Source: an uncultured archaeon
GTDB taxonomy: Archaea; Micrarchaeota; Micrarchaeia; Micrarchaeales; CABMGC01
Direction: 5' to 3'
Assembly: GCA_963704435.1 (NCBI GenBank)
Contig: OY969902.1
Location: 510,001 to 542,000 of the forward strand
Length of the DNA stretch: 32,000 nt
Below the pieces are notes generated by a model, which was not told the origin of the DNA, searched no databases, and saw nothing but the letters and a program-made list of their open reading frames with translations. Both the position numbers and the translations under genes were made by a program. Positions 9-29,423 of this stretch are shown here, piece after piece (the first letter of the stretch is position 1; each line of letters begins with the position of its first letter).

Positions 9-108
9 GGGCTCCTAGCGTAACGGTAGCGCGCCTGCATGGCATGCAGGAGGTTGCGGGTTCGAATGGGTCCGGTCCGCCGGGTCCACGAAAATCCCGC
101 GGAGTCCA
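9..108 (+). tRNA. tRNA-Ala (anticodon GGC) with a 28-nt intron (67..94) in the T-loop, tRNA position 59/60
   Basis: Hand-folded cloverleaf. Acceptor GGGCTCC (9-15) pairs with GGAGTCC (101-107), including the G3:U70 Ala identity pair; A73 at 108. D stem GCGT/GCGC. Anticodon stem CCTGC/GCAGG with loop ATGGCAT (GGC at 41-43). T stem GCGGG (56-60)/CCCGC (96-100). The T-loop TTCGAA+T is restored only after removing 67-94. No encoded CCA. Confidence 0.8.
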
Positions 109-26841: not shown

Positions 26842-27459
26842 TCATCCCCTAGGCGTCATCTCGACCTTCGCCTCGAAGTCCGAAACCTTGTGCGTGAACT
26901 CGTCGTCGCCCTTGATGAGCCCCTTCTCCTTGAGGAATTCCCTCGCGAGGAGATAGTATATCAGCGCCAATGACCTCCTTCCCTTGTTGTTGCACGGTAT
27001 TATGAGGTCCACGAACTTTATCCAGTTGTCGGTGTCGCAGAGCGCGACCGAAGGGGCGCTTATCTTGCTCGCCTCCCTCACCGCCTGCCTCTCGTTCCTC
27101 GTGTCGCTTATCAGCACTATCTCCGGCTCGACGAAGTCGTCCCTGTTCGGGTTCGTGAATACGCCCGGCATCACCCTTCCGCTTATCAGCTTGGTCCCGG
27201 TCAGCTCGGAGAACTTCTTCGCGGGCGCGATTGCGTATATCCTGGAGGCGGTCGCGACTATGCTCCCCTGGTCGTACGATGCCAGCAGCTTTGCCGCTGC
27301 CCTTATCCTCTTGTCTATGGACTCGATGTCGAGCAGGTAGAGGCCGTCGTCCCTCCTCTTGTAGATGAACCTGCTCATCCCGGGGGTCCTGACCCTGGTG
27401 CCTATCTGTATGCCTGCCTCCAGGTACTCCGACTGGTTTGTGAGCGTCTCCTCTTCCAT
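26842..27459 (-). CDS. rps2: 30S ribosomal protein S2 (uS2)
   Basis: YLEAGIQIGTRVRTPGMSRFIYKRRDDGLYLLD, LISDTRNERQAVREA and IPCNNKG blocks. ATG at 27459; the track start is a TTG. Confidence 0.9.
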   Translation of the reverse strand: MEEETLTNQSEYLEAGIQIGTRVRTPGMSRFIYKRRDDGLYLLDIESIDKRIRAAAKLLASYDQGSIVATASRIYAIAPAKKFSELTGTKLISGRVMPGVFTNPNRDDFVEPEIVLISDTRNERQAVREASKISAPSVALCDTDNWIKFVDLIIPCNNKGRRSLALIYYLLAREFLKEKGLIKGDDEFTHKVSDFEAKVEMTPRG

Positions 27460-27583: not shown

Positions 27584-27677
27584 CGGGGTCGCCGAGATTT
27601 CCAACTACGTTGCAGTTTTTGAACTCGGGTCATGTGCTCCCTAAGCACAGAGCCTATCCAGGCTAGCAGACGACCCC
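27584..27677 (-). tRNA. tRNA-Pro-like (anticodon AGG as encoded) with a 20-nt intron (27598..27617) in the T-loop, position 59/60
   Basis: Minus-strand fold: GGGGTCG/CGACCCC acceptor, G73. D arm TGCT-AGCCTGGATA-GGCT (T10:T25 mismatch). Anticodon stem TGTGC/GCACA with loop TTAGGGA. T stem CCGAG/CTCGG. T-loop TTCAAA+T after excising the intron. TATA-like agataaaaac lies about 25-33 nt upstream. Confidence 0.7.
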
Positions 27678-27724: not shown

Positions 27725-27925
27725 CTACTTCCTCCCGTAGCTCATTATGTCGTCTATCAGGTCGACGTGGCTGACGAGCATCCTCCTGCAGCAGTACCTC
27801 TTGACCCCAAGGTCGTCGAGAACCTTGCTGGGGTTCTCCTTGTCGACGTTGACCCTGCGGTTGTACTCCTCCCACTTGTCCGCAACCACCTGTCCGCAGG
27901 AAAAACATCTAACGGGTATCATCAT
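27725..27925 (-). CDS. rpoN: DNA-directed RNA polymerase subunit Rpo10 (RpoN)
   Basis: M(M)[12 protein letters not shown]...[15 protein letters not shown] overlaps the rps9 stop. The start is ambiguous between the ATGs at 27925 and 27922; the track GTG is at 27931. Confidence 0.9.
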
Positions 27926-29324: not shown

Positions 29325-29423
29325 TGCGGGGGATGGGATTTGAACCCATGCAGGTTCTAAACCACAGGAGTTCTGAATGGGTTCCTCAGTCCTGCGCATT
29401 TGGCCAAGCTCTGCCACCCCCGC
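29325..29423 (-). tRNA. tRNA-Leu (anticodon GAG), class II, with a 13-nt intron (29371..29383) at the canonical 37/38 position
   Basis: Minus-strand fold: GCGGGGG/CCCCCGC acceptor, A73. D arm GCA-GAGCTTGGCCAAA-TGC. Anticodon stem CAGGA/TCCTG with loop CTGAGG|intron|C. Long variable arm TGGTTTAGAACCTGC. T arm ATGGG-TTCAAAT-CCCAT. Confidence 0.85.

Follow-up and report, generated by a model that had tools for sequence, protein, structure and literature searches.

A tRNA-Pro gene with a T-loop intron and an AGG anticodon in a Micrarchaeota genome, and the distribution of this anticodon in related archaea

The window analysed here is a 32,000-nt stretch, to which all window coordinates refer, of a Ca. 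Micrarchaeota genome (G000; 853 kb, 92% complete); the family of the source archaeon is called the host family below. A tRNA-Pro gene (27584-27677, minus strand) is located between rpoN, encoding RNA polymerase subunit N (27725..27925, minus strand; NF003089 above cut-off), which lies 47 nt upstream, and rps2, encoding ribosomal protein uS2 (26842..27459, minus strand; TIGR01012 above cut-off), downstream, and this locus is conserved. The same gene block contains a tRNA-Leu(GAG) gene with a 37/38 intron (29325..29423, minus strand). The order from 29994 to 26842 on the minus strand is rpoD, tRNA-Leu, L18e, L13, S9, rpoN, tRNA-Pro and S2; rpoK and enolase are absent between rpoN and S2 in the window, and RpoD is short (189 aa). 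A tRNA-Ala(GGC) gene (9..108, plus strand) bears a 28-nt T-loop intron whose sequence is unrelated to that of the Pro intron. Our recount agrees with an earlier, sequence-only reading of this DNA that introns interrupt three of the window's five tRNA genes. A sigma-70 promoter scan, based on a model unsuited to archaea, found nothing.

The 5' exon of tRNA-Pro (positions 1-59; 27618..27677, minus strand) comprises the acceptor 5' strand GGGGTCG, a three-pair D stem with U10.U25, the anticodon arm, the T stem 5' strand and T54-A59. The 3' exon (27584..27597, minus strand) comprises U60, the T stem 3' strand CTCGG, the acceptor 3' strand CGACCCC and the discriminator G, and CCA is not encoded. 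The acceptor stem has 7 bp, a D arm and a 5-bp anticodon stem are present, and the T stem CCGAG/CTCGG encloses 27 nt. The sequence-only reading had folded this insert into TTCA, a bulge AAA, a hairpin ACTGC/GTAGT (loop AAC), TGGA and a bulge AAT, and this fold and all its coordinates were borne out; the hairpin has 5 bp, one of them G:U. The exon strand TTCA (54-57; 27620..27623, minus strand) forms the central helix with TGGA through four pairs, one of them G:U, between two 3-nt bulges on opposite strands. The intron is a strict hBHBh', a 3-4-3 bulge-helix-bulge (BHB) flanked by helices h and h'. Cleavage after base 2 of each bulge, as had been proposed, removes a 20-nt intron at 59/60 (27598..27617, minus strand), consisting of base 3 of the 5' bulge, the hairpin (27616-27604), the helix strand TGGA (27603-27600) and bases 1-2 of the 3' bulge, and leaves the T-loop TTCAAAT.

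When the gene was spliced in silico, ARAGORN called a 74-nt tRNA-Pro(agg) with a restored cloverleaf; the unspliced gene received no call from ARAGORN or Rfam. The combination of a 4-bp helix and a 5-bp hairpin arises in 5.5e-5 of shuffled-intron trials. In folding of the T-arm, the BHB register had an energy of -8.2 kcal/mol and the minimum-energy fold -10.3, so that the BHB is not the predicted ground state of the arm. The conserved locus, the exons and central helix preserved across the host family (see below) and the lack of another detected Pro tRNA cognate for CCU/CCC mark 27584-27677 (minus strand), with its BHB intron at 59/60, as a functional-looking tRNA-Pro gene and not a pseudogene. 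The tRNA-Ala intron had been assigned to the same site, and its position does fit 59/60, but its BHB is relaxed rather than strict, with a G.A inner pair beside a 3-nt bulge.

Genome G000 encodes a 385-aa endonuclease (C1:573k) that aligns end to end with the epsilon2 enzyme of ARMAN-2 (PDB 4FZ2, E 2e-146). It conserves the catalytic residues Y236, H251 and K282, the loop lysine K161 (ASL lysine), R275 and W384 (PMC3488258). An RtcB ligase is encoded as well, and the host thereby possesses both a ligase and an endonuclease of broad specificity (epsilon2 or (alpha-beta)2 type), as expected for non-canonical BHB introns. The 59/60 intron in the pre-tRNA-Cys from ARMAN-2 is cut by the epsilon2 enzyme in vitro (Fujishima et al. 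2011, PMC3239211). From the sequence and these published ARMAN-2 assays, it can be proposed that the T-loop of the tRNA-Pro precursor would fold into a BHB, that the epsilon2 endonuclease would cleave both bulges and that RtcB would ligate the exons into the 74-nt tRNA-Pro.

The 59/60 T-loop intron of tRNA-Pro is of a kind already published for this lineage (PMC3239211). Among 90 distinct host-family tRNA-Pro sequences, 58 have the 59/60 intron alone, 24 have introns at both 53/54 and 59/60, and eight have the 53/54 intron alone. These introns vary freely (11-33 nt), while the exons are nearly invariant; the 4-bp central helix is fully paired in 82/82 cases, and the first inner pair of the BHB may be T-A, G-C, A-T or C-G. 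In the sister family and in several more distant families, the GGG orthologues carry T-arm introns at the same sites, which indicates that the Pro intron is old, and the 59/60 intron would then be an old feature of the rpoN-rps2 tRNA-Pro gene in Micrarchaeales. In Pro(GGG) genes of other families (L061 = G136, L052, L054, L060), introns also occur inside the anticodon arm, and such genes escape pattern searches; the intron of G136 apparently splits the anticodon itself.

The sequence-only reading had suggested a genome-wide survey for 59/60 introns and a sequence comparison for traces of spread by duplication or transposition. In G000, 45 tRNA genes were counted, of which 14 have introns (the low-threshold intron mode of ARAGORN gave only noise on this genome). 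The survey bore out the recurrence of the site: six genes, namely Ala(GGC), Pro(AGG), Ser(GGA), Leu(CAA), Arg(CCU) and Arg(UCU), carry a T-loop intron at or beside it. Their intron sequences are unlike each other. A recent spread among these genes by copying or transposition would account for the shared site and for the variable presence of 53/54 and 59/60 introns inside the host family, and transposition has been proposed for Thermoproteales introns (as cited in PMC3239211). It is nevertheless improbable, since the six introns are single-copy, even the most similar two do not stand out from shuffled sequences (uncorrected p = 0.095) and the Pro intron site is shared with the sister family and more distant families. 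Recent copying is thus unsupported; ancient copying could have been hidden by fast intron divergence.

Several other tRNA genes of G000 deserve mention. Leu(UAA) has a D-loop intron (G000:C1:480462-480564), Ser(CGA) an intron 5' of the anticodon (G000:C1:691016-691115), and Ser(GGA) (G000:C1:553175-553289) and Arg(UCU) (607905-608029) two introns each, while GTCC or GTGC occurs at the T-loop in several tRNAs. A tRNA-Ile(UAU) gene is present (G000:C1:306468-306542) and tRNA-Ile(CAU) is absent in G000, as is the TiaS domain in five genomes tested; tRNA-Ile(UAU) without tRNA-Ile(CAU) was likewise reported for ARMAN in 2011. The initiator tRNA-Met was not found in the whole contig of this 92% complete genome; possible reasons are a location outside the assembled DNA or heavy interruption of the gene. 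The segment G000:C1:1-100 is repeated from 40535 onward. The contig ends do not overlap, so that closure is not shown.

The anticodon of the tRNA-Pro gene (27640..27642, minus strand) is AGG, with A34 at 27642 in the loop U32 U33 A34 G35 G36 G37 A38. The sequence-only reading missed this feature, which is more unusual than the intron. The Pro tRNAs of G000 are AGG, CGG and UGG, and Pro(AGG) is the only one found that is potentially cognate for CCU/CCC. Archaea have been stated to have no A34 tRNAs (PMC8007984, PMC11066159), and three A34 cases were found among 10,517 archaeal tRNAs (bioRxiv 10.64898/2026.05.15.725136).

A search for the D-arm plus anticodon pattern was performed across 351 Micrarchaeota genomes. 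In the host family, AGG was found in 64/69 genomes and GGG in 0/69; the 24 host-family loci that were read first are all AGG, and the anticodon spans about 28 genera. The sister family has GGG in 72/83 genomes and AGG in 6/83 (genera g37 and g46), and family f12 has GGG in 9/16 and AGG in 3/16 (genus g113), so that outside the host family AGG is confined to these three genera. AGG and GGG were found together in none of the 351 genomes. An additional AGG pattern match in genome G115 (C1:161122) is not a tRNA.

This distribution bears on the case, raised by the sequence-only reading, of a pseudogene accompanied by an intact tRNA-Pro set elsewhere. A pseudogene or an assembly error, with the true Pro(GGG) located in another place, would agree with the silence of the standard scanners and with a genome that is not closed and in which one tRNA is missing. 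Against it, AGG recurs in 64 other genomes of about 28 genera with exons and splice geometry conserved, Pro(GGG) was not found in G000 or in any of the host-family genomes searched, and a search of G000 for Pro-like 5' or 3' ends beyond the three known genes found none. Conservation has already refuted this reading, and the chance that it holds is negligible.

Leu(AAG) was detected in 4/351 genomes, all four of which also have Pro(AGG); G115 (g37), a single 952,257-bp contig, carries both. These tRNA-Leu(AAG) genes have a 37/38 intron, lie at the rpoD-rpl18e locus and belong to all three g37 genomes and G178 (L292 = G115:C1:13751-13772, L291, L293, L294); they are the sister-family orthologues of the tRNA-Leu(GAG) of the window. 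In the three genes that were read, the strand with which the intron pairs is TTAG, matching A34.

The A-form appears to have replaced the G-form of tRNA-Pro at least three separate times in Micrarchaeota. In a quick tree of six neighbouring proteins, built from 40 of 70 rows, the host family forms one clade with support 100, and the AGG label has to change three times inside the order, with at least two of these changes forced by well-supported branches; g113 stands outside this tree and was placed by its family code. The case for independent origins combines this tree with the family codes and the sequences of the tRNAs. The host-family AGG gene keeps the ancestral locus, the ancestral T-arm introns and the acceptor type, which indicates that G34 was changed in place. 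Genera g37 and g46 lack a tRNA at the rpoN-rps2 locus and have an intron-free AGG gene elsewhere. The AGG gene of G177 is identical to the Pro(UGG) of the same genome except at position 34, that of G115 departs from Pro(CGG) at four sites besides position 34, and that of g113 differs from Pro(UGG) only within the anticodon arm. These sequences show that AGG arose by different routes, in place in the host family and from UGG/CGG paralogues elsewhere. The g37 tRNA-Pro genes (L124, L125, L267, L271) have TCC instead of TTC in the T-loop (C55).

U38 is present in 36/41 distinct GGG genes and 0/67 AGG genes, but its loss is a change in place only in the host family, because the other AGG lineages inherited A38 from the paralogue. 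In the host-family ancestor, G34 would have become A34 in place and position 38 would have left U, mostly for A. Through the 32-38 pair, binding to the ribosome is adjusted to the strength of the anticodon, and the change at position 38 would fit selection on decoding.

CCC makes up 28% of the Pro codons in G000 and must therefore be read by some tRNA. The best model, which we consider probable, is that unmodified A34 of tRNA-Pro(AGG) reads both CCU and CCC; it ranks ahead of an undetected deaminase and of a reading of CCC by tRNA-Pro(UGG). Leniency at the third position would follow from the two G-C pairs that proline codons form with the anticodon, and part of the work may fall to tRNA-Pro(UGG), which probably lacks the Elp3 modification. 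In E. coli, AGG without modification decodes CCU and CCC in a 56:44 ratio, and no other A34 tRNA among those tested reads all four codons (PMC11066159); the same paper, citing Chen et al. 2002, attributes an equal lack of discrimination to engineered, unmodified tRNA-Pro(AGG) in Salmonella. Such lenient reading would explain the recurrence of A34 in the proline box. Against unmodified A34, the result in E. coli was obtained with an engineered tRNA body and a bacterial ribosome, and an enzyme of unrecognised fold would escape the deaminase searches. Also counted against it are the incompleteness of G000, in which the initiator tRNA was not found, and genus g113, which combines A34 with Elp3. 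Codon bias does not separate the decoding models, because CCU over CCC is raised alike in the AGG family and the GGG sister family (ln odds 1.04 versus 0.87, p = 0.14). The CCT/CCC ratio of G000 (0.71, other boxes 0.16-0.39) was for the same reason rejected as an adaptation to A34. Loss of m1G37 as a driver, with A34 breaking a run of G to avoid frameshifts, was also rejected, as a Trm5/Tyw2-family gene is present in 50/50 genomes.

Two other readings of CCC were weighed against unmodified A34. If A34 read mainly CCU, an unmodified tRNA-Pro(UGG) could superwobble on CCC, the G34 tRNA having become dispensable after the loss of Elp3. Elp3 above cut-off was found in 0/36 Micrarchaeales genomes, including G000, Pro(UGG) is present in 10/10 genomes checked, and three of the four A34 lineages fall in Micrarchaeales. 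Elp3 is present, however, in other families of the class and in g113, which has A34, so that its loss is not required for A34; 72/83 sister-family genomes keep GGG even though a search of 21 of them detected no Elp3, and CCC is still common in the GC-rich G000. We therefore regard this superwobble as unlikely. The lack of detected Elp3 in Micrarchaeales also bears on the handling of U34 in split boxes and in tRNA-Ile(UAU). The other reading is that A34 is converted to inosine by an archaeal enzyme too distant from TadA/ADAT to be detected, so that I34 decodes CCU, CCC and CCA. It is a minority reading that we rate only slightly higher than the superwobble. The strict mutual exclusion with which A34 replaces G34 is the pattern of inosine systems, the restriction of Leu(AAG) to genomes with Pro(AGG) (4/4), a pair also found in ARMAN-4/5, hints at a shared permissive factor, and archaea do form inosine at position 57 (PMC8007984). 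On the other side, only Pro changed in the host family, where the other seven four-box tRNAs and the Ile tRNA keep G34, unmodified AGG suffices in bacteria, and no CDA-fold or amidohydrolase family tracks A34.

As in inosine-34 systems, the A34 gene replaces the G34 gene, but searches with PF00383, PF14437 and NF008113 found no TadA/ADAT2-type deaminase that accompanies A34 throughout. PF00383 deaminases are patchy (30/75 host-family and 33/74 sister-family genomes), their matches fall into several unrelated groups, and none was found in the near-complete AGG genomes G003 (97% complete) and G017 (93%); a search of five AGG genomes for PF14437 gave no match. The most TadA-like proteins, L102:1459-1953 (G062, 87 bits) and L098:1262-1732 (G168, 107 bits), come from one AGG and one GGG genome and stay below the NCBIfam cut-off of 150 for NF008113. 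G000 carries a dCMP-deaminase-like gene and a yeast-type cytosine deaminase. Its TadA-like gene C1:402441 was rejected as a candidate because it best matches cytosine deaminases, the closest from yeast, over the full domain; close relatives occur in only two other fetched loci. Amidohydrolase deaminases were likewise rejected as partners of A34, being not found in three of five AGG genomes and below cut-off in one more. That a deaminase unrelated to TadA/ADAT makes I34 in these archaea, and allowed the repeated change from G34 to A34 in tRNA-Pro and then in tRNA-Leu, is a doubtful proposal; if true, it would be the first wobble-inosine system in Archaea.

The finding of a tRNA-Pro gene with an intron was correct as first written and was already known for the lineage; A34 is the surprising part, with a brief precedent in another DPANN lineage. 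The intron that hides this tRNA-Pro from standard scanners has also hidden a natural exception to the rule that archaea lack A34. PMC8007984 and PMC11066159 pose the question of why nature has no unmodified A34 tRNAs. A natural experiment is offered by the Pro(AGG) family together with the independent switches elsewhere, for which sister lineages with G34 serve as controls, and the family-wide fixation, the repeated routes, the nested Leu(AAG) and the lack of a TadA-type partner make this standing question testable. The tRNA of an AGG carrier could reveal either natural decoding by unmodified A34 or the first archaeal wobble inosine.

The closest known relative of the gene is the pre-tRNA-Pro(GGG) of ARMAN-2 (Ca. 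Micrarchaeum acidiphilum), which has introns at 53/54 and 59/60 (PMC3239211). Both share the amino acid, the 59/60 site, the strict hBHBh', the endonuclease type and the phylum, and sister-family genes of the ARMAN-2 layout occupy the same rpoN-rps2 locus; the present gene differs in its single intron and its AGG anticodon. For the anticodon, the nearest precedent is Pro(AGG) and Leu(AAG) in ARMAN-4 and ARMAN-5 (Fujishima 2011, PMC3239211). There too A34 replaces G34 in tRNA-Pro and the G34 gene is missing, and four genomes of the present set share the same pair, but by the published description that case concerns another lineage and two genomes in one paragraph, whereas here the trait is family-wide and occurs in three more genera. 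The tRNA-Leu(AAG) of Ferroplasma acidarmanus (PMC6000648) similarly replaces a G34 gene in an archaeon, although in leucine and in a single species rather than in proline. Eukaryotic tRNA-Pro(IGG), formed by ADAT2/3, and bacterial tRNA-Arg(ICG), formed by TadA, are alike in having A34 encoded by the gene and no G34 isoacceptor; unlike them, A34 is here accompanied by no TadA/ADAT orthologue and affects one box. The engineered AGG tRNAs of Salmonella and E. coli read CCU and CCC without inosine, as in the working model preferred here, but those are laboratory constructs in bacteria, whereas the AGG anticodon described here is a natural and fixed archaeal allele.
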